Of a stretch of DNA of 64,000 bases, positions 8,614-60,985 are shown piece after piece; the stretch's first letter is position 1, and every line of letters starts with the position of its first letter. Below the pieces are notes generated by a model. The model was not told the DNA's origin. It saw only the letters and a list, made by a program, of their open reading frames with translations, and did not search any database. This DNA comes from Bispira polyomma (lineage: Eukaryota): assembly GCA_965649765.1 (NCBI GenBank), contig OZ287753.1, positions 17,732,001-17,796,000 on the forward strand, in the 5' to 3' direction. The position numbers and the translations under genes are program-made.

Positions 8614-8812
8614 CTCTCATAACATGGTGACAGTCTGACTGTTCTGTCTATCCATATATTACCCTTTCATAACATTGTGACAGTCTGGCTGTTGTGTTCA
8701 TTCCTATATTACCCTCCCATAACATGGTGACAGTCTAGCTGTTCTGTCCATTCATATAATACCCTCTCATAACATGGTGACAGTCTGGCTGATCTGACCA
8801 TTCATATTACCC
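8614..8812. repeat. Four 50-bp tandem units; the last overlaps the GPCR C-terminal codons and stop
   Basis: Unit CTCTCATAACATGGTGACAGTCTGGCTGTTCTGTCCATTCATATATTACC starts at about 8614, 8664, 8714 and 8764. Confidence 0.95.
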
Positions 8813-10155
8813 ACCACGATACATTTCTCATCCGATTCCACGCGAGTGTCTGTCAAGTGAAGGTCAGGCTTCAGAGACAGAGTTCCGTTGCCATTTGTCG
8901 TCTTAGTTAATGCCTGCATTTCCTCCTCTGATGTTGGGGACAGGTTCCCAGCTTTCCCTGACCTAGAGACAACACTTTTAGTTGTCCGCGTAGAGATTGT
9001 GGTGGTCGCCGTAGTAGTGGTCGCCTTAGCGCTCCGCTTCCCTGGGGCCATACTGTGGTCATCGTGTAGGGCACGGTTTACCTCCGCCTCTGTCGCACAC
9101 TTAAATGCCTTCATGAAACTTTTTCTGAAGTTCTCACTGATGAAGGCATATAGTACAGGATTCATCATGGAGTTGGCATAACTCAGGACTGTGATGATTT
9201 GGAACAGCGCTATAGTCCACATTGGCATATGGTCCACATGGTTGAGGACGATCTGAAACACCCAATATGGCAACCAGCAGATGATGTAGACTGTGATCAC
9301 GGTTAACACCATGTGGGTGACTTTCTTATGGGACTTCTTCTTCTCTTTGGACTTATGCTTGGCACCCACGTCTTTCAGCTTCAGGATGACCAATGAGTAG
9401 AAGACAACGATCAGACACACTGGCACAGCGAATCCAAGCATAAGGGCGTACCAGATAAATGCCTTGTGATTAGGGATTGAACCATTGGGCGGCCACTCAA
9501 TGGTGCAGGAGACGCCTGTCCCATCCTTGTTAGGCATGGTGGTGGTGTAGAGCACCATAGGTAGCATGGCCAGTAAGGAGGCCGACCAGACACAGACACA
9601 GACAATGCGCGAGATAATGGGTGTCCTAAATCGCATGGAGGTGAAGGGGTGGCATATGGCCAGGTACCGGTCAGCACTCATGGCTGTTAGGGTGAACACG
9701 CTGGTGTACCAGTTGATAGAGGTGCTGATGTAGAAGAGCTTACAGATGACAAAGCCAAAGATCCACTTGTGCACGATAGAGGTGATGATGAGTATCGGCA
9801 ATCCTATAAGGAAGCAGAGGTCAGCCACCGCCAGGTTAAGAATGTACATGTTGGTTACGGTCTTCATCTTAGTGTAGCGGAGCACTACAAAGATTACCAG
9901 ACCATTGCCCATTAGTCCAGTCACACAAATCAATGTATACAAGGCTGCGGAAACTACACTCATTGTATCCACACTCACATAGCCACCGGAGTTAGAGTCC
10001 GGATCGGTAAGATTCCCAGAGTGATTGCTGACGTTGCTGTGATTATTGACATAATTCCCGCCAGTCCAGCTGTTATTGACCATGATGTTGATGTCTTCAC
10101 CCCAGGGGGTGCTGCTAGCAGTACTGGGTTTATGGTGGACTTCTACCTCTACCAT
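8767..10155 (-). CDS. AstC-R: Class A neuropeptide GPCR, allatostatin-C/somatostatin receptor family, 462 aa, single coding exon
   Basis: Seven hydrophobic segments with GN (TM1), NLAVAD (TM2), SADRY, CWLPYW and NPVLY motifs. 'LRYTKMKTVTNMYILNLA' is typical of SSTR/AstC-R. N-terminus has several N-x-S/T sites. In-frame TAG 9 nt upstream of the ATG fixes the start. C-terminus -VTML fits a class I PDZ ligand. Confidence 0.9.
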   Translation of the reverse strand: MVEVEVHHKPSTASSTPWGEDINIMVNNSWTGGNYVNNHSNVSNHSGNLTDPDSNSGGYVSVDTMSVVSAALYTLICVTGLMGNGLVIFVVLRYTKMKTVTNMYILNLAVADLCFLIGLPILIITSIVHKWIFGFVICKLFYISTSINWYTSVFTLTAMSADRYLAICHPFTSMRFRTPIISRIVCVCVWSASLLAMLPMVLYTTTMPNKDGTGVSCTIEWPPNGSIPNHKAFIWYALMLGFAVPVCLIVVFYSLVILKLKDVGAKHKSKEKKKSHKKVTHMVLTVITVYIICWLPYWVFQIVLNHVDHMPMWTIALFQIITVLSYANSMMNPVLYAFISENFRKSFMKAFKCATEAEVNRALHDDHSMAPGKRSAKATTTTATTTISTRTTKSVVSRSGKAGNLSPTSEEEMQALTKTTNGNGTLSLKPDLHLTDTRVESDEKCIVVGNMNGQISQTVTML

Positions 10156-10232
10156 TGTCTTCTACACATTAGATGTATATCTGTGTGGGAGGGTGGGGTT
10201 GGAGATCTCTCAACACGGGGTCCAGCTGTGAG

Positions 10233-25739: not shown

Positions 25740-26082
25740 AAACAAACATGGGCCTTAAAACAAGGCTGATAAAAGTCGTCTGCTACAAACACACAGCTAG
25801 TGTTAACACTTCTCTCACAACCATTTGCAATAGTTCTCCATTGATTCTATGTGTCTCCTCTCTATGATACACAATATAGATGGCTCTGCCTTTATACAAA
25901 GTGTGTACTAGTACTAAGGAAGAAATAGAAATAAACTACCTGCCTTCAGATTTTTTCTTTCATACATACATCATGTACCATGATACACATCAAAACTCAC
26001 ACAGTGATTATCTCATTTATCATTCACAAACATTCTTAGAATGTTCTTAGTCTCAGGCAATCAGATTCTCTGAAACATATGT
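25740..26082 (+). repeat. 343-bp direct repeat X, left copy
   Basis: Matches 31384-31726 with one substitution seen (ctgcctTtatac vs ctgcctCtatac). Confidence 0.95.
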
Positions 26083-26196
26083 GATAGTCACTGCATTAAG
26101 CATGGCTTCTCAGTCGCAGAAATTTCATATATTACAGTAATGCTGATAAACAATTTGTTTACTGAGACAGCAGCCTATTAGAACACTTACTGATAG

Positions 26197-26311
26197 CCAA
26201 TAGCAGGCTGGTTCACTCAGGCATTTTGCCGCCCTTTCTATTGTGAGGGCATTGCAAAACTAGAAGTTGAATAAGCAACAACTAAAATTTTGAAAGAAAC
26301 GACGCCATCTT
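26197..26311 (+). promoter_or_regulatory. Putative E1 promoter: CCAAT, E2F-like and YY1-like motifs
   Basis: CCAAT 26197-26201, TTTGCCGC 26225-26232, CGCCATCTT 26303-26311. Same order in the E2 A repeat. Confidence 0.55.
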
Positions 26312-26479
26312 GTCAATAGATAAAAGTTGGCAAGATTCAGAAGAGTTTTACAAGTTTTAGTGTTTTATTAATTTACTTATACATCTTATACCATTTATTT
26401 TATACACAAGTGTTTATCATATACAAGGAGGGTGTTAAACGGATTATTACATTATTGTGAACAAATCCTACGACTCATC

Positions 26480-27931
26480 ATGGGCAGAGGTAAGAAGCGT
26501 CAACCTGCTACAAACATAGCTTCGTGTTCTCGATGTGACATCTCACATACCAGACCTGTTGGGAGCAGATGTAAACGTCAATTAGTGTCGGACGAAATAG
26601 GAGGCTTGCAGAGCGATTCCATAACTACACACGACCACGAAACTTCGATAAGCATGAGCGAATCTGGCACAGCCGTAAGTAGTGATTCTTTCTACCGGGA
26701 CGCGTTTCATGAACAACAGTCCATGATGAATAACATTTTAAAAACAGTGTCAAAATTACAAGAAGATATGTCCGCCCTGAAAGAAAATAAAACCCGCTTA
26801 CGTCCCATGAGTCCTGACAAAACTACAGCTGAATTAGATCAACAAGGTTCAGGTCCACTGATCCGACAGAAGTTTAATAGTCAGTGCAGAAGTAGCACAC
26901 AAGTGCGTACACAGCCTCAGGGTACACTTCGCAGAGATTCTCGTCTACCGATTCCAGATTTCTACAACGACGTACCTACACATTCACATAACCGTGCACA
27001 GAATACACCTCAGTCAGCAGCATTACTACCCACACCAAGCATCGTGTCTCAGGGGCAGAACCTATTCAATACGACGTCTCAGAGACTGCTTCCAAGTGAA
27101 CAAGTTCCACAACAAGCGGGTTGCACAGGTCTTCAGCCACATCACAACACGACTGCACACAATGCCTTCTCACAACAAGCGACAAACCACACACAAAGAG
27201 CAATGCAAGATTCGATCATCCCATCTACAGACGTACTTCGGCAGTCCTCGTTAATACAAAACGAAGTAAGCAGACGATTGGCCCAGTATGACAGTTGGTC
27301 AAGCAGCGACTACATTCAGGGTAAGTCAACTAAGAAAAAGTCGGGAAGGTACAACATTTCAGAAGTTTGCATATCCGACCCAATAGTACGTTGGCCAAAT
27401 GAGGGAAATTTAGCCGGGGTCTCAAAGAAACGTATCGCATATGATGAACTCACAGTAGCACAATTTGGCGCGGGTCAAATTCAGAACATTTTACAAGTTA
27501 AAAACCAGGTCATAGCGACAGCTATGCTAAAACAGCTAGGTGATTCATTAAGAGACAGTGCCAACCTATCCTGGCAAGTCGCGCGGGGCGCATACGCCTG
27601 TAGTATGCACGATGTGGAAGAGGGAAGGCTGTGTTGGACGGATGAACACAAATGGGCGATGAATCGCCTGTCCTACTCCCAAACGTTGATTTCAAATCCA
27701 TCCGGAGCATCAAATTCCACTAACGCGTCTGGTAACAAACCCGAGATTCCATGTCGACATTTTCAAAAGAACACTTGTCAACACAAAGGTGACCACGAGG
27801 GCCACTCAACCGTCTTCAAGCACATCTGTGCTAATTGTTTCCGCATTTCCAGACGACAGAATCCCCATCCGGAAACCAAGTGTTTCAAAATACATGGGAA
27901 ACCAGAGGTCAACACGACGCACACTCAATAG
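26480..27931 (+). CDS. gag: E1 ORF1, Gag-like protein
   Basis: First ATG at 26480 (the track start 26432 is GTG). N-terminal CxxC-x3-H-x7-C motif and C-terminal Cys/His cluster (CRHFQKNTC..H...HICANC..HPETKC) are conserved with E2 gag. Confidence 0.85.
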   Translation: MGRGKKRQPATNIASCSRCDISHTRPVGSRCKRQLVSDEIGGLQSDSITTHDHETSISMSESGTAVSSDSFYRDAFHEQQSMMNNILKTVSKLQEDMSALKENKTRLRPMSPDKTTAELDQQGSGPLIRQKFNSQCRSSTQVRTQPQGTLRRDSRLPIPDFYNDVPTHSHNRAQNTPQSAALLPTPSIVSQGQNLFNTTSQRLLPSEQVPQQAGCTGLQPHHNTTAHNAFSQQATNHTQRAMQDSIIPSTDVLRQSSLIQNEVSRRLAQYDSWSSSDYIQGKSTKKKSGRYNISEVCISDPIVRWPNEGNLAGVSKKRIAYDELTVAQFGAGQIQNILQVKNQVIATAMLKQLGDSLRDSANLSWQVARGAYACSMHDVEEGRLCWTDEHKWAMNRLSYSQTLISNPSGASNSTNASGNKPEIPCRHFQKNTCQHKGDHEGHSTVFKHICANCFRISRRQNPHPETKCFKIHGKPEVNTTHTQ

Positions 27932-30631
27932 GACGGGAAACCGCATACAGACACCACTGCTGCACGCATAACTCAAACATCTCGGAGAGGCACAGAATGT
28001 GACACAAGTATCCAGCATGATGACTTTGAGCATAAATATAAAATTGAAGGGAAAGACGTTGAGATATATTTTAATGAGTTAGGTAACAGTTCTATGGACA
28101 CTACTAGCTGTGTAATAACCAATAGTAAAACAAACGTTTTGCCAATTAACACAGTACAACAGACAGAATCTATATTTGATGATCATATGTTAAATCTAAA
28201 AGACGTTAAGTTAGTCATCAGTAATGTAAATCAACAAGTGACTAGTGGTAGTGATATGTGCAGTGACAATACTCGATCTGACTCTATGAACAATTGTAGT
28301 AGTAACTCCATGTCAAAAGTAGATAGGAGTAATGTTGATGTATATTTTAGTTCATATATATCCAGTTTGGATGGATATCACTTATGTTATATTGTATGTA
28401 ATGATAAGGGCCACATTTCCGGAGTGTACACCTGGACTAATGTGTGCGGTCGAGTGTCTCTACATAAATCTGACTACACTGTGGCTAATATATGGCCAGT
28501 AACATTTTACACAACAATGACAATAGATGTCATTGAGACAAAAGCCAAACACTTCACAAATGCAACACGTTTAAAACAACACACAAATAAACAGATTCGA
28601 CAGAGTATCACACACACACGAACAAAGACAAATAAGGCTCAATATTATTTGGACATTATTGATGAAATATCTAGAACAGTTCACCAAGGTACACAAACAC
28701 AAACAGAAGACAACATTGACACTCTACTAGTGAAACGAAAAAGTATAAAATCAGTAGACACAAATGAACATGTTGCCAATTTTGATGACATTGAGATACT
28801 ACAGAATTTGATTATAAATGACCACATTGATGCATTAGGTGACACTAATACAAAAAAAGAAAACAAATTGAAGACAAAAATGATGATGGACAACAGGACT
28901 TATGGTTTTATCACACACGAACAAGAAACTTTCAATTTTGTTGGACCAGAGAGACAGACAGTTGACATTGACTCATACGATAAGTTAATTAAGGTGGCTG
29001 AGATTATAAAACAAACAAACTTACCAAATTACAGAATGGCAAGAATACCAATTAAGAGTAATCTTAATGTGAGTAATTGGAAGAAATATCTAACCAATTA
29101 CCCAAATCAGAAATTACTTGAGTACATACAATTCGGATTTCCCATTTCTCTGTATGAGCGAGACAGACTGAATGTAAAAGATATCAAAAATCATTTCTCA
29201 GCCTTGACCTTCCCAAATGTGGTAGACAAGTATTTCACCACAGAAATAGAAAGAGGCACAATAATAGGACCAATAAATCAAACTCTTCACAAGGACACAC
29301 ATTGTTCTCCCCTTATGTCTAGGCCTAAAGACAATAATCAGCGCAGATTAATTCTTAACTTATCTCATCCTTTAGGCAGATCAGTAAATGATTGTACCGT
29401 AAAGGACAAATGCGACAACACCGACTTTGACTTAAAATTACCGACTATTGACCAAATTACCACTTACATTAAATTTTTAGGACCTAAGGCCACCTTAGCG
29501 AAATTGGACATAGCCCACGCATTTCGAAACTTACGTGTTGACCCTCTTGATTGTTTAAAACTAGGTTATGTTTGGAAAAATCAACACTTTATTGATCTAA
29601 GTCTTACTTTCGGACTCACCCATGGCACGTCTATCTTTATCATGGCATCAGACGCAATTACTTACATCATGAAAGAAAAAGGTTTTAAAGTATTTAACTA
29701 CATCGATGATTACATTATTGTAGAAAAAGAAGATAAGGCCACCTTAGCCTATGAAACTTTACAAAGTATTGTAACTGAACTTGGTTTACCCATCAATCCC
29801 AAGAAATTAGTTCCCCCTAGTAAAAAGGTCACATGTATGGGCATAACAATTGATATTGCACACGCAACTCTCAGTATTGACGAAGAAAAACTCAATTCAA
29901 TATATGACATTTGTGTCACATTCAGCTCATTAAGAAAAGTACCTAGAAATAAGTATCAATCATTATTGGGTAAACTCCTCTATATACAGAGGTGTGTGAA
30001 ACATTCACGCATATTTATGAATCGGATGCTTACAGTACTACGAAATTCCAAACATAGCAAATGGATAAACTTAACGGACGAGTTTCATAAGGACTTGAAT
30101 TGGTTCTTACGTTTCTTAAAAGAATTCAATGGTACTACAAAGTATAGCATTGAAAACCAACACTATGACATACTATTTCATGGTGACGCGTGTCTCTCCG
30201 GCATAGGTGGCGTGTGGGATAAGAAAGTTTTTCAAACAGTGTTACCAATGTTTTTAACAGAATCACTATCTATAGTACACTTTGAAATGATCTGCGTACT
30301 ATTAGCATTGAAATTATGGGGTAAACATTGGCAGAACAAACGAATTAAAATCAAATCAGATAACATGGCAGTGGTTTCTGTAGTGCGGTCGCTGAAAACT
30401 AAAGATAAATATTTAAGCTTATGTTTGAGAAACATTTGGCTACTCTGTGCAAAATACAATATAGACCTCTTAATAGAACACATACCAGGTAAAGACAACG
30501 TTATTGCAGACTGTTTATCTCGTTGGCATGAATTAGGACATTATGGACAAAAAATGAAGGACTTGATTAAGGAAAATTTTGAAATGTACAATATACCACT
30601 AGACATGTTCCTAATGGACACTTTAATTTGA
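27932..30631 (+). CDS. pol: E1 ORF2, reverse transcriptase plus RNase H (first ATG 28094; frame open from the gag stop)
   Basis: RT motifs KLDIAHAFRNL, LTFGL and YIDD. RNase H motifs DAC, E, KSDN and N.IAD.LSR. Same frame as gag, with no stop in 27932-28093. Confidence 0.93.
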   Translation, partial: DGKPHTDTTAARITQTSRRGTECDTSIQHDDFEHKYKIEGKDVEIYFNELGNSSMDTTSCVITNSKTNVLPINTVQQTESIFDDHMLNLKDVKLVISNVNQQVTSGSDMCSDNTRSDSMNNCSSNSMSKVDRSNVDVYFSSYISSLDGYHLCYIVCNDKGHISGVYTWTNVCGRVSLHKSDYTVANIWPVTFYTTMTIDVIETKAKHFTNATRLKQHTNKQIRQSITHTRTKTNKAQYYLDIIDEISRTVHQGTQTQTEDNIDTLLVKRKSIKSVDTNEHVANFDDIEILQNLIINDHIDALGDTNTKKENKLKTKMMMDNRTYGFITHEQETFNFVGPERQTVDIDSYDKLIKVAEIIKQTNLPNYRMARIPIKSNLNVSNWKKYLTNYPNQKLLEYIQFGFPISLYERDRLNVKDIKNHFSALTFPNVVDKYFTTEIERGTIIGPINQTLHKDTHCSPLMSRPKDNNQRRLILNLSHPLGRSVNDCTVKDKCDNTDFDLKLPTIDQITTYIKFLGPKATLAKLDIAHAFRNLRVDPLDCLKLGYVWKNQHFIDLSLTFGLTHGTSIFIMASDAITYIMKEKGFKVFNYIDDYIIVEKEDKATLAYETLQSIVTELGLPINPKKLVPPSKKVTCMGITIDIAHATLSIDEEKLNSIYDICVTFSSLRKVPRNKYQSLLGKLLYIQRCVKHSRIFMNRMLTVLRNSKHSKWINLTDEFHKDLNWFLRFLKEFNGTTKYSIENQHYDILFHGDACLSGIGGVWDKKVFQTVLPMFLTESLSIVHFEMICVLLALKLWGKHWQNKRIKIKSDNMAVVSVVRSLKTKDKYLSLCLRNIWLLCAKYNIDLLIEHIPGKDNVIADCLSRWHELGHYGQKMKDLIKENFEMYNIPLDMFLMDTLI

Positions 30632-30637
30632 TTTCAG

Positions 30638-31413
30638 GAATGACAGAAACAGCTAGACCTCTCTTGACAAGTGCAGTCCAGAGAATTAGACAGTGTCACA
30701 GACCCAGAACTACTAAACAATATAACAGCCAGTTTAGATTATTCCTGGCCTTCACAGTATACTACCAGCTGAATGAAACATTCAGCTTCAATACCATTAT
30801 TACATTCATGGAATATCTAGTACAATCTGGAGTTTCACCCAAAGTGATAAACAACTACTTGTCAGCTATACGTCATACTTGCAAATTTCTTAACATTACT
30901 GACAAGGGTCTTTATGATCAAAGATTACCACTGTTTCAAAGATCAGTCGAATTATCCTCAAGATTTTCTCCCAAGGTCAAAGGTGTCTTCGACCTTCACC
31001 AATTGATAGAAATTTCAAAAACATGTGAAATTCTTCATTGCCCTGAATTATTCAGAACAGCGTTTTTGGTTGCATATTTCGGATTCCTGCGAATCTCTAA
31101 TTTGACTACAACTTCCGGATACCGATTTGACCCAACTAGACACATTACCAGGGATGACTTGGTGTTTGCTCACCCTGGCATTCATTTGATTCTAAAGTGG
31201 TCGAAGACGAATCAGACCAGATCACATACAGACATAATTCAACTCCCTGCTCTTAGCAACCCTTGGCTTTGTCCACTCACTGCTGTGAAGAAATTATTTC
31301 AAAAATTTCCAATGTCAGGGAAAGCACCATTATTAGCTGATCCTTCAGACAAAGATAAATGCCTTTCAGATACAAAGCTCAACAAACAAACATGGGCCTT
31401 AAAACAAGGCTGA
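30638..31413 (+). pseudogene. E1 tyrosine recombinase, C-terminally truncated
   Basis: GFLRISN (R) and KWSKT (K) are present. The ORF runs into repeat X at 31384 before the HxxR, H/W and Y catalytic residues seen in E2. Confidence 0.85.
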
Positions 31414-31726
31414 TAAAAGTCGTCTGCTACAAACACACAGCTAGTGTTAACACTTCTCTCACAACCATTTGCAATAGTTCTCCATTGATTCTATGTGTCT
31501 CCTCTCTATGATACACAATATAGATGGCTCTGCCTCTATACAAAGTGTGTACTAGTACTAAGGAAGAAATAGAAATAAACTACCTGCCTTCAGATTTTTT
31601 CTTTCATACATACATCATGTACCATGATACACATCAAAACTCACACAGTGATTATCTCATTTATCATTCACAAACATTCTTAGAATGTTCTTAGTCTCAG
31701 GCAATCAGATTCTCTGAAACATATGT
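31384..31726 (+). repeat. 343-bp direct repeat X, right copy
   Basis: Offset of 5644 bp from the left copy. Confidence 0.95.
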
Positions 31727-43284: not shown

Positions 43285-46200
43285 AGCCTACGCTTCCTTT
43301 CAGCACATTCCGACGTCCGCTAATTTGTGTGCGTCCGATTCGATCTGACATCAGCAGATGTTGTGCTACCTTCCATCAGATATATACTAAAAATTCGTCA
43401 AATATTGATGTTAAATATGGCTTGAGAAAGCTTATTTTATTATGATTACAGTGCTTTTTTCAACCGAAAATGTATATGTTTCCTCCTTGTACTTTCTTGG
43501 ATTTCCCACGGATTCTGGTGGGAAAAAAAGCACAGTAATCACAATAAAATAAGCTTTCTCATACTATTTTCAAAGTCAACATCTGACGAATATTGAGTAT
43601 ATATTGGATGAAAACTGTACCTATGATAGTGTTTTTGTAGCCATTTTCGTTTCAAAATCTCACAGTCTTCCCGATTTTCCCCTACCTGACAGATAAAATA
43701 TGTTAGCCATTAAAAGATTTCAACACCCTCCTCGACACTTTTGGGTTCTCACAGTTTATCTCTACTTCAACCCACATCCACAATCACATACTCGATCTGG
43801 TAATTGCAAGACCAAATTCAAATCTCATCAGAGAATCATGGGTAACTGATGGGATTTCAGATCACCTAGCAACCTTCGCCTATTTAAATTTACCAATACC
43901 TGCCTCACATAAACCTCGTGTCATAAAATACAGAAACATCAGAAAAATCATTATAAACAAATTTAGAGACGATATCCTGGAAACTAATCTCATCAAACAT
44001 CCATGTAAAAATGCTGAAAATCTTAGCTTACAATACAATCACTGCCTTTCTACTGTCCTTGATAAACATGCGCCATGGGTATCAAAAACCCTTCCCCCAA
44101 CTAACACCCATGAATGGACCAATGCCCCCATAACAGAGGCCAAAAGACGCAAACACCAACTTGAGCGTCAATGGCGATGCACAAAATCCTCCTTAGACAG
44201 AAGCCGTTATCGTATCGCCACAAATAATTACAACAGGCTAGTAACTGATGCCAAAAAGCAACACTACGACTCCATCAACACTGAAAATCATCAAATCCTC
44301 TACTATTAAATCTTGTGAATTACATCCCATCCCAGCAGTTATACTGAGTCAATGTCTTGACATTCTTGTCACACCCATAACAAATATATTAAATTTTTCT
44401 CTTCGGGATGGTGTTTTTCCCACCTGTTTCAAGACGGCAAATGTAACTCCCTTGATTAAAAAACAAGGGCTTGATAAAAACCAGCTCAAAAACTAGAGAC
44501 TGGTGTCAAACCTCAGCTTCGTCTCAAAAGTTATCGAGAAAGCTGTAGCTAAACAAATTTCTGACCACCTTAATAGACAAAACATTGAAAATCGCCGCCA
44601 GTCTGCTTATAGAAAATTTCACTCTACAGAAAGTGCCCTTTTTTCCATCAGCAATGATATCAATCTTGCACTGGACCGCAACAACACAGTGGCCCTCACC
44701 CTTCTGGATCTCTCAGCTGCATTCGACACTATTGATCATGTCCTGCTCTGTGACACTTTCAAGCAGTGGTTCGGTATAAATGGCAGTGTCCTTAAATGGA
44801 TCAGATCCTACCTTACTCTTAGGGCACAAAGAATTAAACTAGATGATCACCTATCATCTTCCATAAAGCTACCATATGGAGTACCCCAGGGATCCGTCCT
44901 TGGCCCTCTACTTTTTACCCTTTATACACATCCTCTCAGCACTGTCATCAATAAACACAATAAAAACAAAACACCACATGTATGCAGATGACACTCAAGT
45001 CTATCTCTCCTTCAATCCACAAAATGCAAATAATAACATAGACCTACTTGCAGACTGTTTGATGTCCAGTCCTGGATGAACTACTCTAAACTAAAGCTTA
45101 ACCCTGACAAAACAGAATTCATCCTCATAGGAAACAAAAAAAACAGTGAACTCCTAAAATCTTTGTTTCCCATCTCCCTGCTGGGAAAAGACATACTACC
45201 TTCCGAAAATGCTAAAAACCTGGGTGTCACTTTTGATTCAGCTTTTTCGTTCGATACTCATATTGCCAACATCTGTCGCTCCTCTATTACCACATACGCG
45301 ACATCAAAAGAATCAGAAACCACTTGTCCATGGACACAGCGATAACTGTGGCAAATGCCCTTGTGAGTAGCCACTTCGACTACTGCAATTCTCTCTTGTA
45401 CGGAGCAAACAAGTCAAACATTAAAAAGCTCCAGTCCATCCAAAACTACCTATGTAGGGTCATTTTTCGCCTGGGTTGTCGCACAGATGTCACTCCTTAC
45501 CTTAAAAAATTACACTGGTTGCCCATTAAATCTCGAATTTTGTTTAAGATTCACGTTACCACTTTTAAGGCTGTAGTCACTCAACAGCCACCCTACCTTG
45601 CCTCCCTTCTTTCCTTCAGTAACCGCAAGAGAGGCAACAGACTCTCTGTCACTTCGGTCAGACCAATCAGAAAGGCGGGTTTCACAGCGTTCTCCACTGC
45701 AGCTCCACGGTTATGGAACAGTCTCCCAGTTGACCTCAGATCAGTTGACACACTTATTGGTTTTAGGAAAAAGCTTAAAACCTATCTTTTTAATCTTGCC
45801 TACCCACCTTAGCTTTCCTCGTGCACGCTTCCACTTCCTTCCTTACGACTTTGCAATTTCCATGGACTTAATGATTGGACTAATGATTCTGCTGTTGCGC
45901 TTTAGAAGATGCCCAGCATCAATAAAGCGCGTTAAAACCTATAATAATAATAATAACAGACGTCAGCCGACGTCTGATGGGATCTGATGGAAATATGCTG
46001 AAAGGAAGCACTTGGTAGTGTTGTATAATGATTTTTAGGCCGATTTTTACCCTCATTATACAATACTACCAAGTGCTTCCTTTCAGCAGATTTGCATCAG
46101 ATCCGATGTCTGCCGACGTCTGTTTGGCCAACAGTTTTTATATGTCAAGGAGCGAAAAAATCGGGAGGACTGTCCGATTTTGAAGCAATAGTGGACAAAT

Positions 46201-53793: not shown

Positions 53794-54346
53794 CAGTGCC
53801 CTACCCTAGTAAACTTGTAGATGTGGTGTAACACAGGAAAATAACAAGAAAGGTAGGTTTTGGGGATATTAGCTTTAATTTGACTATGTTATCACTAATA
53901 ATTATTTACATACTGTGTAGTAAGGGGCCACCTTAGCCCCAAGAGTTTAGGAGAAGTTAAGAGTTTAAGGTGACCTTAACCTGAGGACAACAGGCCAAAG
54001 TGACCAAAGGGATTTTTAAAATTTAAGGGGTAGCCCTAGCTTGAAAGTTAGGGCTACCTAAGATTGAGTTTAAGGTTAAGGGTAGCCCTAACTTGGAAGT
54101 TAGGGTTACCAAAGATTGAAATTTTAAGGTTGAATTTAGGGGTAACCCTAACTTGAAGTTAGGGTAACCTTAGAATGAGTTTAAGTTTAAGAAAAATGGT
54201 AACCTTAGATTTTATTTGAGGTTGCCAAACGAGATTTAGTAAAGATGTAAAATGATTAAATTAGTATAAGGTAAGGTGGCCCCAAAATATTTATATTTAA
54301 GCATTATTATATTTTATTTGTATATAATGTATGTAAATAAAGCCCC
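53794..54346 (-). repeat. E2 repeat B2 (553 bp)
   Basis: Matches 55448-56000 with two substitutions seen. Confidence 0.95.
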
Positions 54347-55251
54347 CAAAAAGGGTAAAATTGAAATTAAAAAACCATGGTACTAGCTAAGAAACTAAAA
54401 CCTGTGCTGCTCACTAATAAAGTCCATAAGAGGAGCAAAAACTCACTAAACCTTAAACCCCTAGCATATACAATTACCATGGCTTACAGAGAACATGCAT
54501 ACAGACATAAGCAAAATATAAATCGAGTAGCTCTTGTCTTCCAGGAGGGCAGTGCTTGCTTGTATAGAGTTCATTCCTGACTGAGCCACAAGAGATCCAT
54601 GAATCCAGTGTGCCTGAAACTACATGCTTACAGTTGAACATGTGATCACAAAGTTACCAAATGCACTTGCACACAACATGATGTGCAATGCATTATAACG
54701 TTATACTAGCGACAACACGAGGTTGCGAAATACAAACATTTTACAAATCCAGTCCTCGTTGTGACGAGGAACAACATTAATAGTTATACTTTACATGCTA
54801 CTATGACAACAAAAAGGATGCGACTTCACATACTGTACACATATAAAATCGTGCTGCCTGACGCAGGACATTTGACAACATTATCAATTTGATATACAAC
54901 AAAGGGAAGACCCTGAAAACAATAAAGTAACATACATTGATAACTACAAAAGGAGACGCAACCTCAGCAGCAAGCAGCTACCTAAAATTAAGTGTTGGCC
55001 CCTAAGGGCCCTGGTGTTACCCAGAAAAGTATGGGAGATAAGTCACCTGAGGCCCCAGAAGGCCCCCAAGGGCGGGGAACTGTGAAGGCCAGCAGTAATG
55101 CATAACTCGTGGGCCCACAGCCCCGAGCCCCCACCCCCCTGCGCCAAGGTGTAAAGTGAGACTTCAGGAACCCCAGGGACTGCATGCCGCACTCCAGGGA
55201 CGGACGCATAGCTGAAAACTACAGAGGAAGTAGTAGGGGCAAGTGGGTGGG

Positions 55252-55451
55252 TAATGTAAAATATTAAAGATGGCGTTGTTGCCCAAATGACTTCAATAGT
55301 ATAAGTGAGGATTCTAGCTAAAAAGCGGGAAAACAGAGGTTAATTAGTACACAAGTGACCAATTAGGAAGGGGTTCATAGGGCATGAACCCAGGGTAGAA
55401 AATACTAGTAGCACTGAACTTGCTATCCCCTACGGCGCTACCCCGCACAGT
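55252..55451 (-). repeat. E2 repeat A2 (200 bp)
   Basis: No mismatch seen against 60786-60985. Confidence 0.95.
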
Positions 55452-56000
55452 GCCCTACCCTAGTAAACTTGTAGATGTGGTGTAATACAGGAAAATAACA
55501 AGAAAGGTAGGTTTTGGGGATATTAGCTTTAATTTGACTATGTTATCACTAATAATTATTTACATACTGTGTAGTAAGGGGCCACCTTAGCCCCAAGAGT
55601 TTAGGAGAAGTTAAGAGTTTAAGGTGACCTTAACCTGAGGACAACAGGCCAAAGTGACCAAAGGGATTTTTAAAATTTAAGGGGTAGCCCTAGCTTGAAA
55701 GTTAGGGCTACCTAAGATTGAGTTTAAGGTTAAGGGTAGCCCTAACTTGGAAGTTAGGGTTACCAAAGATTGAAATTTTAAGGTTGAATTTAGGGGTAAC
55801 CCTAACTTGAAGTTAGGGTAACCTTAGAATGAGTTTAAGTTTAAGAAAAATGGTAACCTTAGATTTTATTTGAGGTTGCCAAAAGAGATTTAGTAAAGAT
55901 GTAAAATGATTAAATTAGTATAAGGTAAGGTGGCCCCAAAATATTTATATTTAAGCATTATTATATTTTATTTGTATATAATGTATGTAAATAAAGCCCC
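55448..56000 (-). repeat. E2 repeat B1 (553 bp)
   Basis: Begins about 10 nt after the YR stop and overlaps A2 by the CAGT core. Confidence 0.95.
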
Positions 56001-56009
56001 AAAGCCCAA

Positions 56010-57056
56010 CTAGGAAGTAGTGGAAGGGGAAAGGAGGGCCTTGAAGGTGAGGGCGACTTGGTCAGATGCATTGTGATCCTGTACAATATATTTCCACACA
56101 CAATCAGACGTCCAAGTGCCATGGCTCTGGATATCTTGAATTGGGACATTATTGTTGAAGGCCAAGGTGGCACCTGAACGCCTGAAGGTGTGGAAAGAAA
56201 TGTTTGATTGCTGGAGGCCAAGACGCCTCAAAATTTGAGTGAGATTTTGTCTAGCTTGGGTGTCAATCATTGGGGCCCATTTATGGTCTTTTTTAAACTG
56301 AAAGAGAGGAGAATTTTTGTGTCCAGGAGTAATAGCTAGTAAGGCCCTTGTGGCAGCCACCGGACAAAGACTAGAGCCACTTAGGCTCGGTATTTTAATA
56401 ACTTTTGCTACATTCTTTGACTGCATTGTTTTAGACCACTTTATTATGAGGTGGAGGCCAGGGGAGGCAAAAAGTACGTCCCCCCGGGACAGTTGGACTA
56501 GTGAAGAGAATTGAGAGACAGCATGTGGAAGTAAGTTCGATATTCTAAGAAAAGAAAAGAAAGCAATGAGGTACAGAGCCTTGAAGACCTGCCCCATGTA
56601 CATGCTGTCACAAATTTGAGTAATTTGGAGTAACAGGGGAATGTCAATAATAGCGTTAATTTTAGCGATGAAGGGGCTATTGAGTGTGAGGGCTTTTTGG
56701 TAATACTTAATTCTAGGATCTGCAAATGCAGAGACGTCAAGGCCATAGAGGGCCAATTTAGCCTTAACCGCCGAGAGGTAGTTTGCAATGGAGGAGGAAG
56801 AGACATGATTAACCACTAATACTTCTAAGAAAGCCAATACAATGAGGGGGGAGATATTTTGAGGCCTGACCTGAGCAAAACTACAATAGGCCAAGAATAT
56901 CCTAAACATATTTGTATAGGCCCTTTCAGTGGCTGGTCTAAAGGCCTGATGGGCTCTGTATGAGGCTTGTGTAGCAATCTTTCTTAGCTTGGAAGGTACA
57001 TCTGCAATTAGATAGACCAATCTATTTCTAACATTGTGTCTTTTACTTTTACCCAT
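56010..57056 (-). CDS. E2 tyrosine recombinase, intact; probably entered by splicing at 57001
   Basis: Full catalytic set: FLRISN (R), KWSKT (K), FHTFRRSGA (HxxR), HGTW and KYI (Y). Confidence 0.93.
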   Translation of the reverse strand: MGKSKRHNVRNRLVYLIADVPSKLRKIATQASYRAHQAFRPATERAYTNMFRIFLAYCSFAQVRPQNISPLIVLAFLEVLVVNHVSSSSIANYLSAVKAKLALYGLDVSAFADPRIKYYQKALTLNSPFIAKINAIIDIPLLLQITQICDSMYMGQVFKALYLIAFFSFLRISNLLPHAVSQFSSLVQLSRGDVLFASPGLHLIIKWSKTMQSKNVAKVIKIPSLSGSSLCPVAATRALLAITPGHKNSPLFQFKKDHKWAPMIDTQARQNLTQILRRLGLQQSNISFHTFRRSGATLAFNNNVPIQDIQSHGTWTSDCVWKYIVQDHNASDQVALTFKALLSPSTTS

Positions 57057-59488
57057 TTGGGATTCGATACCAGTTCTAGTAACTTGTCATTATTGCTGGC
57101 CGTGATCTGCCACCTAGAGAGGAGATCAGCCACTGTATTAAGTCTACCTAAAATGTGAATGGTTTTGAGACTGATATCATGGGAGGCTACGGTCATGAAG
57201 ATGTTTCTGGCAATAGCTGCCAAAGTGAGGTCTTTAGTTTTGCCTGAATTGAGGATAGTGACCACGGCAGCATTGTCGCATTGCAATATTAACCTCTTAC
57301 CTGCCCACGCTGACTTCCATAGCCTAATGGCAACTAAGATGTTTAACATCTCCAGATGAACTATCGTGAAATCTAGATAACCTAGAGGAATTTGGAATTG
57401 GTATACCTCATCATTACAACGGCCTCCCAGACCTTGGAGGCACGCATCCAACTGAATACAATCGGTAGTGGGTTTGTGTTCAAAGAAGGCTTTTCCATTA
57501 AATGTTGGTAAAAATTTTTTAAACCAATTTACATCCTGATGAAACTCAGGTGTAAGTTTTACTTTTTGATCCGGGCCTACAGATCTTAGGACGTCAAGCA
57601 TTCGGTTTAAGAAAGCACGTGAAACTCGAACACATTTGGATACATATAACAATTTACCTAGCAGTGACTGCAACTCCCTCTTACTGCAGTAGTTTCTTAA
57701 TTGCCAGTCTTGCACAAGTGTGTTTATTTCTAGTAGCTTTTCATCTGGCAATGAGATTGTCAAGTCATTTGTATTAACTAACACCCCCAGACACGTTACT
57801 GACGTGCTGGGGTGAACAAGTTTTTTGTGACTAATCGCAAAGCCTAGTTCCTGGAGTAAGTTGAGCAATATATCAAATGAATGTTTACTTTCTATGACGT
57901 CACCATAGCCGATTACGTCGTCGATATAGTTGGTGACGTCATGTCCGTGACGTTTCATGATGTACCTGACGGCGTCACTTAATCGCTGAAAAATGGCGCT
58001 CCCGTGCCGAAAACCAAATGGGAGGCAAGAGTCGACGTAGTATTTGTCTAATTTTAAGCCTAATAGATTGTAATCGGCTGGATCCATTTTTACGTGACGA
58101 AATGCCCGACTTACGTCAATTTTATATAAGAGCGTTCCACGTCCCATACGACATATTTTGTTTGTGATTGTGTCAATTGTAGGAAGGGTTAATGCAAACG
58201 CAGTACCGAGATACTTATCCTTGACTACAGCCGAATTCACAGAGTTGCCATGAGGAAAGCTTAAATCTATGATAACGCGCCTGTGTGCGGCACCTGGCTT
58301 TTCCCTAGTCATAAAGGGAGAAATATGGAGGTTTTGTATGGGGGCCTTATGGAAAGGGCCCAACATGGCGCCTAACTCAGTCTCTTCTTTTAAATAAGCA
58401 TGCACATCATCTGGAAATTGTGTTGCAGATGAATGATTCTGTTCTGTATGAGATAACTTGCTGTCAGGATTAAAATCGAGGGGAAACCCATATCTTATCA
58501 AAAAGGGAAGTTGTTTATCCCAGTAGTCAGTCAAGTATTTTTCCCATACATCTGGGTTCAACTCAGATTTCAATTGAACTTGTGCCCCCATATAATTTGG
58601 GTAGTTGTCCTGCTTAATCTGAGTGTGTAACTCTAACAGAGACTTATCCGACTTTACTCGTTTATCCGTTTGGGGAACTTGGAGGTCATTTAGCGGAATA
58701 AACCCATACTTATCTGTAGTTTGAGTATCCCATTGCTGGAACTGAGGCTGGTTGCAAGCACGTTTTATAAGTTCCTTGTTTTTCGATTTAGTTTGTAGTT
58801 CTAGGTCATATTTGTCTGATTTTATTCCCCCAATACCTCGAGAGAGTATTTTAAGACCTTGACCTTGGTTACAAGTATCTGGTAAATGTGTGACAGAGTT
58901 GTCACTAGTGTCCATATAATGGTCATTGTCACTCAAAGGGGAAAACCTATTGTGAGTGGAAATGGGCCATTTGCCCTGAATGTCTAATTTTGTGCTTTCC
59001 AGCTTTTGGCCAAATTGATCACCTTTTGTTGGAGGGGGTTTACCCATTTCTGACATTACATTATTCCTCTGTGCACTTGTAAAAGGGAAAGCTCCTTTTG
59101 TGAAAGCTTTAACACTCACTCTGTGCCCCAGTTCATGTTTTGTGGACACTTCTGACATTTGGTTATTATTTAAACATGGTGAACATTTAACATGGTGACT
59201 TTGACACCTCTGATTCACATTTGCACTTTGTACAGAAACCTTTATGGCAGCAGACCTGGAGGGAGCCTTTCTTTTAACCACATCAGCATAAGATCTATTT
59301 ACAAATTTGGCCCAATCTGCCCTCCAATGTGTACTGCCAGTATTACATTTAAGACTATTAAACATAGTTCTAGTGGGAAAACCTTTAGAATTATTTACAA
59401 CTTTTTGTGCAAGTTTTTTACTGACCACCTCTTGTGTGGAAGAAACATAGGCTGGCACTGCATTACGGCAGTGCCTTACTCGTTTTTT
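57008..59488 (-). CDS. pol: E2 ORF2, reverse transcriptase plus RNase H, in the -1 frame from gag
   Basis: KIDVSRAFRH, LPFGF and YIDD (RT); DAC, E, QCDN and N.VAD.LSR (RNase H). The track start 59458 is GTG, and the frame is open back through the slippery site. Confidence 0.93.
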   Translation of the reverse strand, partial: KKRVRHCRNAVPAYVSSTQEVVSKKLAQKVVNNSKGFPTRTMFNSLKCNTGSTHWRADWAKFVNRSYADVVKRKAPSRSAAIKVSVQSANVNQRCQSHHVKCSPCLNNNQMSEVSTKHELGHRVSVKAFTKGAFPFTSAQRNNVMSEMGKPPPTKGDQFGQKLESTKLDIQGKWPISTHNRFSPLSDNDHYMDTSDNSVTHLPDTCNQGQGLKILSRGIGGIKSDKYDLELQTKSKNKELIKRACNQPQFQQWDTQTTDKYGFIPLNDLQVPQTDKRVKSDKSLLELHTQIKQDNYPNYMGAQVQLKSELNPDVWEKYLTDYWDKQLPFLIRYGFPLDFNPDSKLSHTEQNHSSATQFPDDVHAYLKEETELGAMLGPFHKAPIQNLHISPFMTREKPGAAHRRVIIDLSFPHGNSVNSAVVKDKYLGTAFALTLPTIDTITNKICRMGRGTLLYKIDVSRAFRHVKMDPADYNLLGLKLDKYYVDSCLPFGFRHGSAIFQRLSDAVRYIMKRHGHDVTNYIDDVIGYGDVIESKHSFDILLNLLQELGFAISHKKLVHPSTSVTCLGVLVNTNDLTISLPDEKLLEINTLVQDWQLRNYCSKRELQSLLGKLLYVSKCVRVSRAFLNRMLDVLRSVGPDQKVKLTPEFHQDVNWFKKFLPTFNGKAFFEHKPTTDCIQLDACLQGLGGRCNDEVYQFQIPLGYLDFTIVHLEMLNILVAIRLWKSAWAGKRLILQCDNAAVVTILNSGKTKDLTLAAIARNIFMTVASHDISLKTIHILGRLNTVADLLSRWQITASNNDKLLELVSNPKWVKVKDTMLEIDWSI
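59454..59488 (-). promoter_or_regulatory. Putative -1 programmed ribosomal frameshift signal
   Basis: A_AAA_AAC (59488-59482) in the gag frame, 6-nt spacer GAGTAA, perfect hairpin GGCACTGC-CGTAAT-GCAGTGCC (59475-59454). Confidence 0.8.
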
Positions 59489-60450
59489 AACGGATATTTT
59501 TTACAGTCTTTTGCAGGGTGGGGGTAATACCTCCCATTTTGAAAGCATTGGTTACACACGTGACTATATGACACACCTTTGAATTCGTGATCCCCTTTTT
59601 GGGGGCAAGTACCCTTTTGGAAGTACCTACATGGGATGGACTTCTCATGACTTTTCCTGGTGTTGGTTTGATGATTACTATTTGCAGTCTGGATGACAAC
59701 CCTTTGGGCATGAGCCCGTCTAATCCTGTCCAACTTGTGGGCATCTCCCCAGGTTACCTTACCCTCTTCCATTTTACACAGTACAACGGCATGGCTAGCC
59801 TTAGCCGAGGTCCAGGAAAAGTCATGAGCGTCCTCCATGAGGTCAGTGAGATAGTCCAACATTTGGTTCTTAACGTCTAAACTACTTTCATCTCTAGCTA
59901 TACTGGCAAAACCAGAGACCCACTGGGCCATTGACAACGCGTCATACGTAACTCGTGTTTTGTTTTGTCCCCCTAGTATAACGTTCTGAAGCCAAGCCAC
60001 CTTATTCTTCACCCACAGAGTGTCGGGACCCCCTCTTTGAGATTTTGACGTACCTGATTCATTAATGGCCACCAATTCCTTAAGACGTGAATCCACTGCA
60101 GTCTGTAGGGAGTCGGATGAACGTAGTGTCTGTAGCGTCGGAACCAGTAGCTCAGAAGTGGTTAGCTCCGCCTGTCTAGGTTGGGCTGCACTCCCCGGGC
60201 TCGACGCCGGCAAAGCCTGGGCTCCATGTGAACTGCGATAAACTTGCTGCTCAACTTGGGTCATACGCCCACTTAATGCTTTGAGTTCAGTCAAAATTTG
60301 TAGGTTAACGTCGGCAGCAGTTACACCATCGCTAGCCACAGAGTTCTGCTTGGAAGTTCCCACACCGGTATATAATTTACAGTTTTCATCAATGGGTTTA
60401 ATATGACTAGTTTCACACTTGTGACAGTAGTATTGTTTCCTCGGGGCCAT
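59476..60450 (-). CDS. gag: E2 ORF1, Gag-like protein (324 aa)
   Basis: N-terminal CHKC-ETS-H-x7-C, a coiled-coil-like segment, and C-terminal CRYFQKGTC..H...HVCNQC..HPAKDC. Confidence 0.88.
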   Translation of the reverse strand: MAPRKQYYCHKCETSHIKPIDENCKLYTGVGTSKQNSVASDGVTAADVNLQILTELKALSGRMTQVEQQVYRSSHGAQALPASSPGSAAQPRQAELTTSELLVPTLQTLRSSDSLQTAVDSRLKELVAINESGTSKSQRGGPDTLWVKNKVAWLQNVILGGQNKTRVTYDALSMAQWVSGFASIARDESSLDVKNQMLDYLTDLMEDAHDFSWTSAKASHAVVLCKMEEGKVTWGDAHKLDRIRRAHAQRVVIQTANSNHQTNTRKSHEKSIPCRYFQKGTCPQKGDHEFKGVSYSHVCNQCFQNGRYYPHPAKDCKKYPLKNE

Positions 60451-60785: not shown

Positions 60786-60985
60786 TAATGTAAAATATTA
60801 AAGATGGCGTTGTTGCCCAAATGACTTCAATAGTATAAGTGAGGATTCTAGCTAAAAAGCGGGAAAACAGAGGTTAATTAGTACACAAGTGACCAATTAG
60901 GAAGGGGTTCATAGGGCATGAACCCAGGGTAGAAAATACTAGTAGCACTGAACTTGCTATCCCCTACGGCGCTACCCCGCACAGT
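60786..60985 (-). repeat. E2 repeat A1 (200 bp), contains the putative promoter
   Basis: CCAAT 60893-60897, TTTCCCGC 60866-60859 and CGCCATCTT 60809-60801. Hairpin GGGTTCAT-AGGGC-ATGAACCC. Confidence 0.95.

Follow-up and report, generated by a model that had tools for sequence, protein, structure and literature searches.

A conserved predicted intron that would join the Gag N-terminal region to the tyrosine recombinase in Ngaro retrotransposons of Bispira polyomma

Introduction

Ngaro-type retrotransposons are characterized by split direct repeats in the order A1-[ORFs]-B1 A2 B2, by a tyrosine recombinase (YR) that is encoded last and on the same strand, and by the absence of a methyltransferase, according to the accessible portions of PMC8547959 and PMC4157794. 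The Ngaro literature, in its accessible text, either proposes that YR is reached by a frameshift (PMC13003380) or is silent on the matter, whereas in the elements described here a conserved intron is predicted to fuse YR to the N-terminal region of Gag. Neither "splic" nor "intron" occurs in the accessible portions of PMC9210276, PMC3783388 and PMC3266345. Full-text literature searches, with the founding papers of Goodwin and Poulter and the Repbase entries outside their scope, found no published report of a spliced Gag-YR product; the initial annotation of the locus had likewise been aware of no such splicing in Ngaro elements.

The closest analogue of a Gag(N)-YR protein is the SD'/P50/SDARE system of MLV, in which, according to the accessible part of PMC10496198, a donor in gag is joined to an acceptor in pol, giving a Gag(N)-integrase fusion, and the spliced SD' RNA is itself reverse-transcribed and integrated. 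According to the same text, P50 has an accessory role and includes no more of integrase than its 116 C-terminal residues, whereas exon 2 of the Ngaro elements encodes the whole recombinase, and most families are without another evident route to it. MLV integrase and YR are, in addition, unrelated enzymes of unrelated element classes. In plant Ty1/Copia elements, host splicing of one transcript reportedly yields a subgenomic gag RNA; the product of that splicing is Gag, whereas splicing in the Ngaro elements would yield the integrating enzyme. The YR part has its fold and catalytic residues in common with the Cre/lambda-integrase family and differs from it in the Gag-derived N-terminal extension that splicing would add. 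Lambda integrase has an extra N-terminal arm-binding domain, and its likeness to the Gag-derived extension is a functional analogy only. Introns have been noted in some fungal YR elements.

Results

E2 is a Ngaro-type retrotransposon of a young, large family

We analyzed a window of 64,000 nucleotides from Bispira polyomma (assembly GCA_965649765.1, contig OZ287753.1, positions 17,732,001 to 17,796,000), which contains the elements E1 and E2 (Table 1). Elsewhere in the window, a 464-codon frame on the minus strand (8767-10161) presumably encodes a somatostatin/allatostatin-C-type receptor, and 43707-45812 on the plus strand holds what we take to be fragments of a LINE endonuclease/RT.

E2 is a Ngaro-type YR retrotransposon. 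Its repeats are split and direct (A1-[ORFs]-B1 A2 B2), and its ORFs follow on one strand in the order gag-like, RT/RNase H and YR. Pfam identified RT in pol (PF00078, E 3e-11) and gave a match below the cut-off to the RNase H-like PF13456; no methyltransferase domain was matched by Pfam in E2, and pol ends about 33 codons past the RNase H-like match. YR carries H-x-x-R and the catalytic Tyr, and the first ORF, without a Pfam match, was labeled gag from its position and its Cys/His motifs. The spacer between A2 and B2 is 903 nt long, and its longest frame has at most 76 codons. E2 ends with direct repeats only; the inverted terminal repeats and internal complementary region of DIRS-1 type were absent. 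Repeat layout, place and strand of YR and the missing methyltransferase are all in common with the Ngaro-like elements of the DIRS order, whereas DIRS-like and PAT-like elements have a methyltransferase.

Among 121 scored YR matches in the 1.04-Gb genome (14,251 candidates, mostly unscored), at least 30 copies were 95-100% identical, so the E2 family is young and large. Of the 30 best copies of the family (L001-L030), 14 stop where B1 ends and lack a following A2, which is what recombination between B1 and B2 would produce. The gag alignment has a nearly invariant Pro at residue 154 (near 59990, minus strand), which in E2 itself is replaced by Leu, and for this reason Gag of this copy may be impaired.

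Table 1. Positions of features of E2 and E1 in the window.
Feature	Position	Strand	Remarks
E2 repeat A1	60786..60985	-	200 nt, identical to A2
E2 gag ORF	59476..60450	-	ATG 60450, 324 aa
E2 exon 1 (predicted), coding part	60054..60450	-	132 codons + 1 nt (397 nt from ATG)
E2 predicted phase-1 splice donor CAG/GTACGT	60048..60056	-	exon end 60054
E2 predicted intron	57002..60053	-	3052 nt: C-terminal half of gag and all of pol
E2 putative gag-pol -1 frameshift signal	59454..59488	-	A AAA AAC 59488-59482 and 8-bp hairpin 59475-59454
E2 pol ORF	57008..59500	-	830 codons stop to stop; stop TAA 57010-57008
E2 predicted splice acceptor TAATTGCAG, then /AT	57002..57010	-	overlaps pol stop codon; phase 1
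E2 YR open frame	57086-56010	-	
E2 exon 2 (predicted)	56010..57001	-	complete tyrosine recombinase, core-binding and catalytic domain
E2 repeat B1	55448..56003	-	556 nt, 99.5% to B2
E2 repeat A2	55252..55451	-	identical to A1
E2 repeat B2	53794..54349	-	3' end of E2
E1 homologous phase-1 donor AGG/GTAAGT (predicted)	27318..27326	+	exon end 27320
E1 homologous acceptor TTTCAG (predicted)	30632..30637	+	just behind pol stop

Predicted splice sites in E2 and E1

The initial annotation had placed a phase-1 donor in gag (60054) and a phase-1 acceptor behind pol (57001) of E2, and both are present as described. Translation of exon 1 joined to 57001-56010 gave 462 codons with no internal stop, in line with the uninterrupted protein of N-terminal finger and complete YR that had been predicted. 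The sites fit the U2-type pattern (GT donor, A/G at +3, G at +5, YAG acceptor), and the pyrimidine tract of the acceptor is short. E1 had been said to share this design and does so, with homologous sites (donor at 27320, acceptor ending at 30637) and an ATG directly after the acceptor. E1 (window positions 25740-31726) matches the full-length copy L051 only to about 31381; the C-terminus of its YR and B1 are missing, and A2 follows directly. In the contigs of three runs, apparently genomic, which covered all 30 bins, the 60054/57001 joint was not among the 15 joints listed, a result that is uninformative on splicing.

Donor and acceptor are conserved across families

Eighty loci were fetched from the B. 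polyomma genome, picked by hand for spread from lists of YR matches. With the copy L068 left out and E1 and E2 added, they gave 81 copies in 30 families at 85% YR DNA identity, and identity between the families was 44-80% (median 50%). An acceptor AG stood 62 nt before the RPxT motif of YR in 77 of the 81 copies (CAG in 69, TAG in 7 and AAG in 1), and each of the 30 families had one or more such copies, although these counts, like those for the donor, are not independent because the families share ancestry. The four copies without AG at -62 have small or large deletions at the site. The donor GT was found in 65 of the 66 copies with a mappable site, the other copies lacking or having lost that part of gag, and the family-majority donors of 24 families were GTACGT (10), GTAAGC (10), GTAAGT (3) and GTAAGG (1). 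The comparison proposed at the outset, of GT in gag and YAG behind the pol stop, showed both position and phase to be kept across the families of this genome; with the acceptor at one offset and the donor so regularly present, the early judgment that chance was unlikely holds. Among 14 further loci, partly picked as odd or truncated, the donor GT was present in 12 of 12 mapped loci and AG at -62 in 7 of 12. In a distant family of the same genome (L164 and L166, YR 32% identical to E1), CAG/GTAC occurred at the gag position, mapped at 28-29% identity, and TAG exactly at -62.

The donor codons were also conserved at synonymous sites. Across the 14 families of the E1 clade, just one of 134 four-fold columns in gag, pol and YR was invariant, that of the donor Gly (GGT in 13 of 13, the fourteenth being an AGT copy); the Lys after this Gly was AAG in 14 of 14, with the other 19 AA- columns mixed. 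The donor Gly of the E2 clade (10 families) was GGT and the next codon ACG, each in all 10 families. Seven of the 216 four-fold columns in this clade were invariant. Two of them are the donor codons, one is the Ser of pol that immediately precedes the acceptor, and the remaining four are unexplained. Four-fold sites other than the donor codons were saturated. Judging from these codons, the constraint at the donor is on nucleotides, not on residues.

A genomic copy lacks exactly the predicted intron

In L068, a copy from a sister family of E2 (G000:C1, about 95.308-95.311 Mb), gag and YR lie in one frame and pol is missing. Compared with the full-length L151, L068 has a single deletion, with 96-98% identity on either side of it; the junction lies at G000:C1:95309324-95309325. 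In all six relatives compared, the left flank ends at AAG/GTAAGC and the right flank begins after TTTCAG; L068 joins the two directly, and its deletion edges are the sites homologous to the donor and acceptor of E2. L068 runs from the very start of repeat A to the end of repeat B, with no poly(A) tail, and its collapsed 3' repeats were also seen in 14 of 30 unspliced E2 copies. Most simply, L068 would be a reverse-transcribed spliced RNA, copied in trans, that then inserted or converted a resident copy. The RT of DIRS-1 has been reported to be active in trans, in the accessible part of PMC7192593. Because its gag part has an in-frame stop, L068 is not proof of a working fusion.

These observations could also be read without splicing, the conserved motifs reflecting constraint on protein or RNA structure and L068 having arisen by chance, through a deletion at microhomology, or being wrongly assembled. 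Such a reading would suit the facts that L068 is a single intron-less copy and that its breakpoints share a 2-nt AG, although the exact loss of any intron would leave the same overlap. However, both breakpoints fall at sites named beforehand, which by rough arithmetic on AG-AG pairs only has a chance of about 1 in 10^5 per deletion, and E2-like copies contain six further internal deletions, distinct from one another, that all missed the donor and acceptor sites. The constraint at the donor, moreover, lies on third codon positions and matches a GT(A/C)AG-type consensus, and we consider an explanation without splicing very improbable.

Besides L068, no second intron-less copy was found among 150 matches scored for that junction, and a comparison by eye of 150 + 150 E2-clade matches gave no adjacent gag/YR pair. 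There was also none in the 14 further loci and none more in the open-frame listings of the genome searches. Seven gag-only and eight unpaired loci taken up as candidates for intron-less copies were really frameshifted, truncated or otherwise deleted, and a 522-codon open frame in L160 was a pol-YR fusion by deletion.

Pol/YR junction and possible unspliced routes to YR

The review of Poulter and Butler 2015, as quoted in the accessible part of PMC13003380, puts Ngaro YR in a short -1 overlap with RT/RH and regards it as probably frameshifted. YR would then be made as part of a Gag-Pol-YR polyprotein by a programmed frameshift in the pol/YR overlap, and the splice sites would be secondary. Consistent with this proposal, pol and YR overlap by 79 nt in E2, and the -1 arrangement is the commonest one (pol stop at -69 in 20 families). 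However, pol and YR can also share a frame (-70 and -73, 7 family counts) or stand in a +1 relation, and the L036 family by itself contains different arrangements; YR has no overlap with pol in 7 of the 12 metagenome families (see below) with a mapped pol end, where gaps reach 839 nt. For families without a pol/YR overlap, the frameshift route is excluded. In fungal Ngaro elements, YR may share the frame of RT-RH or lie in another one (PMC3783388, accessible portion). A frameshift also leaves the frozen gag donor codons and L068 unexplained, and we give it hardly any chance of being the route to YR.

YR might also be translated alone from an internal AUG, by reinitiation, leaky scanning or an internal promoter, with splicing real but a minor by-product. 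An in-frame Met upstream of the YR core is indeed found in E2 (57056), E1, L053, L087 and half of the L036 copies, and at least 18 codons upstream in 5 of the 14 metagenome families. Nevertheless, 26 of the 30 families of B. polyomma are without a majority in-frame Met at least 18 codons before RPxT, and the position of the Met is not conserved. Since a by-product would need neither matching donor and acceptor phases nor frozen donor codons, translation from an internal AUG as the main route appears quite unlikely.

Gag-Pol, in turn, appears to be made from unspliced RNA by recoding, to judge from the signals at the gag-pol junction. The E2 clade, in which pol lies in the -1 frame, has kept the signal of A AAA AAC and the 8-bp hairpin (z -2.96). 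The junction of the E1 clade is CAA-UAG with pol in frame (E1 27929-27931, plus strand), and the two sister clades differ in this recoding signal. With these signals conserved, pol does not need a spliced route of its own. In metagenome gags, the stop was UGA with C or A next in 6 of 7.

Related elements in other organisms

A metagenome scan yielded 27 loci, of which 20 had the 5' end of YR and were grouped by eye into 14 families, with 25-40% YR identity to E2. Acceptors were scored over 110 nt with an untrained score (YAG plus pyrimidines). The best-scoring acceptor was phase-compatible in 11 of the 14 families, compared with 24 of 67 among all YAGs (binomial about 0.001, calculated by hand), and the three remaining families had a compatible YAG, at -56 to -62, in second or third rank. 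With the same score, the best acceptor was phase-compatible in 22 of the 30 B. polyomma families; another YAG outscored the proposed acceptor in 8 of these 30 and in 3 of the 14 metagenome families. Phase-1 donors were present at the aligned place in gag in L124, L129, L142 and the L131/132/136 family, and no donor scoring at least 7/9 was found there in L127 or L135. A search for relatives in viral contigs found none.

Of 120 foreign YR proteins, 71 were anchored and 33 were long enough to cover the split-codon position, which was G or D in 27 of the 33; the counts of G/D at nine neighbouring offsets were 0-4. Part of this signal may be protein constraint.

Some of the loci had unusual arrangements. 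L127 and L129 have a gag ORF at most 1 kb behind YR, the order that tandem copies or the assembly of a circular form would show, and L159, from the B. polyomma genome (G000:C2:3434000-3440500), contains a B-A-spacer unit in a head-to-tail array with three copies of repeat A. An extra ORF lies behind YR at L135:4139-4813 and L140:1189-2031; its motifs resemble those of the SGNH hydrolase of some Ngaro elements.

The Gag N-terminal module and the recombinase

The N-terminus of E2 Gag contains C9-x2-C12-x3-H16-x7-C24, and in a comparison of 16 gags C9, H16 and C24 did not vary and C12 hardly did; P104, Q116 and R122 were also invariant in these. The predicted structure of E2 Gag (pLDDT 67) consists of the finger, a helix at 45-75, a helix at 106-131, a linker, a helical domain at 174-257 and a C-terminal Cys/His region. 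Exon 1 corresponds in this model to the zinc finger, the 31-residue helix and the second helix, whose last residue is 131. The donor coincides with a predicted domain boundary, at which this second helix, the last of the N-terminal region, passes into the low-confidence linker. No clear fold match was found for Gag (best Z 5.6, with the N-terminal part barely covered), and its N-terminus had no Pfam match and a best Atlas score of 0.82, a lead at most.

K188, H271, R274, W297 and Y305 of YR were invariant in 26 aligned YRs, and the model of a sister-family YR had a Cre-like fold (Foldseek, Tre/Cre, E 2e-8, TM 0.62). In the model of L068, the gag part was one long helix (13-42), a part with no alignment depth. 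No annotated fusion protein joined as in L068 turned up, the 45 candidates being unscored; the L068-junction fusion had 0 matches among 1.84 billion representatives, a test that was too weak, as even the YR half alone had 0 there. In a MAFFT alignment, the gag helix before the donor was paired with the first YR helix, probably by chance.

Discussion

The splice is supported by the conserved sites, by the synonymous constraint and, as the strongest evidence, by L068, a sister-family copy that lacks exactly the intron, and we are highly confident that it is real. It also seems quite likely that splicing to Gag(N)-YR is how these families ordinarily make YR. The initial annotation had YR made from a subgenomic spliced mRNA, a proposal that conservation, synonymous constraint and L068 bear out; its comparison with retroviral env gives way to one with the SD' RNA of MLV, which is closer. 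The zinc-finger/coiled-coil module might, as that annotation also suggested, tether YR to the particle or to DNA.

We suggest that one transcript would give three products. The unspliced RNA would serve as genome and as mRNA for Gag and, through ribosomal recoding, for Gag-Pol, by a -1 frameshift in the E2 clade and by UAG read-through in the E1 clade, as the conserved signals indicate. Part of the RNA would be spliced by the host spliceosome from the phase-1 donor in gag to the phase-1 acceptor just behind the pol stop. Read from the gag AUG, the spliced mRNA would encode Gag(N)-YR, consisting of the zinc finger, a coiled-coil-like helix, a conserved helix and the whole recombinase; for E2 itself, we infer both the splicing of its RNA and the translation of the fusion. 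As the spliced RNA would retain all four terminal repeats, RT could occasionally copy it in trans, followed by insertion, as in L068. Our preferred guess, offered purely as a hypothesis, is that the shared N-terminal module would bring the fusion to the cDNA by allowing it to assemble together with Gag.

A wider reading, which we put forward tentatively and with some doubt, is that the animal Ngaro integrase in general could be a spliced Gag(N)-YR chimera and not the annotated ORF3, with the Gag finger and helices loading it into the particle and steering target choice. ORF1 appears to determine the insertion preference of Cafeteria Ngaros, according to the accessible part of PMC8547959. A targeting role of the Gag extension would fit that report, although the link is loose, as ORF1-deleted copies there would be moved in trans.

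Translation of the last ORF in YR retrotransposons has so far been a matter of conjecture, with frameshifting as the proposal, and a conserved intron with exact coordinates is directly testable in existing RNA data. The recombinase would be redefined, since a biochemical or structural study confined to the ORF3 product would leave out a zinc-finger/helical extension of 130-280 residues. The element would balance spliced against unspliced RNA, as retroviruses do. The finding also suggests a class of non-autonomous copies derived from spliced RNA that annotators could find. If the general chimera reading is true, it would explain how ORF3 is translated and possibly the ORF1 insertion preference in Cafeteria, and annotated Ngaro YR proteins would lack their real N-terminus.
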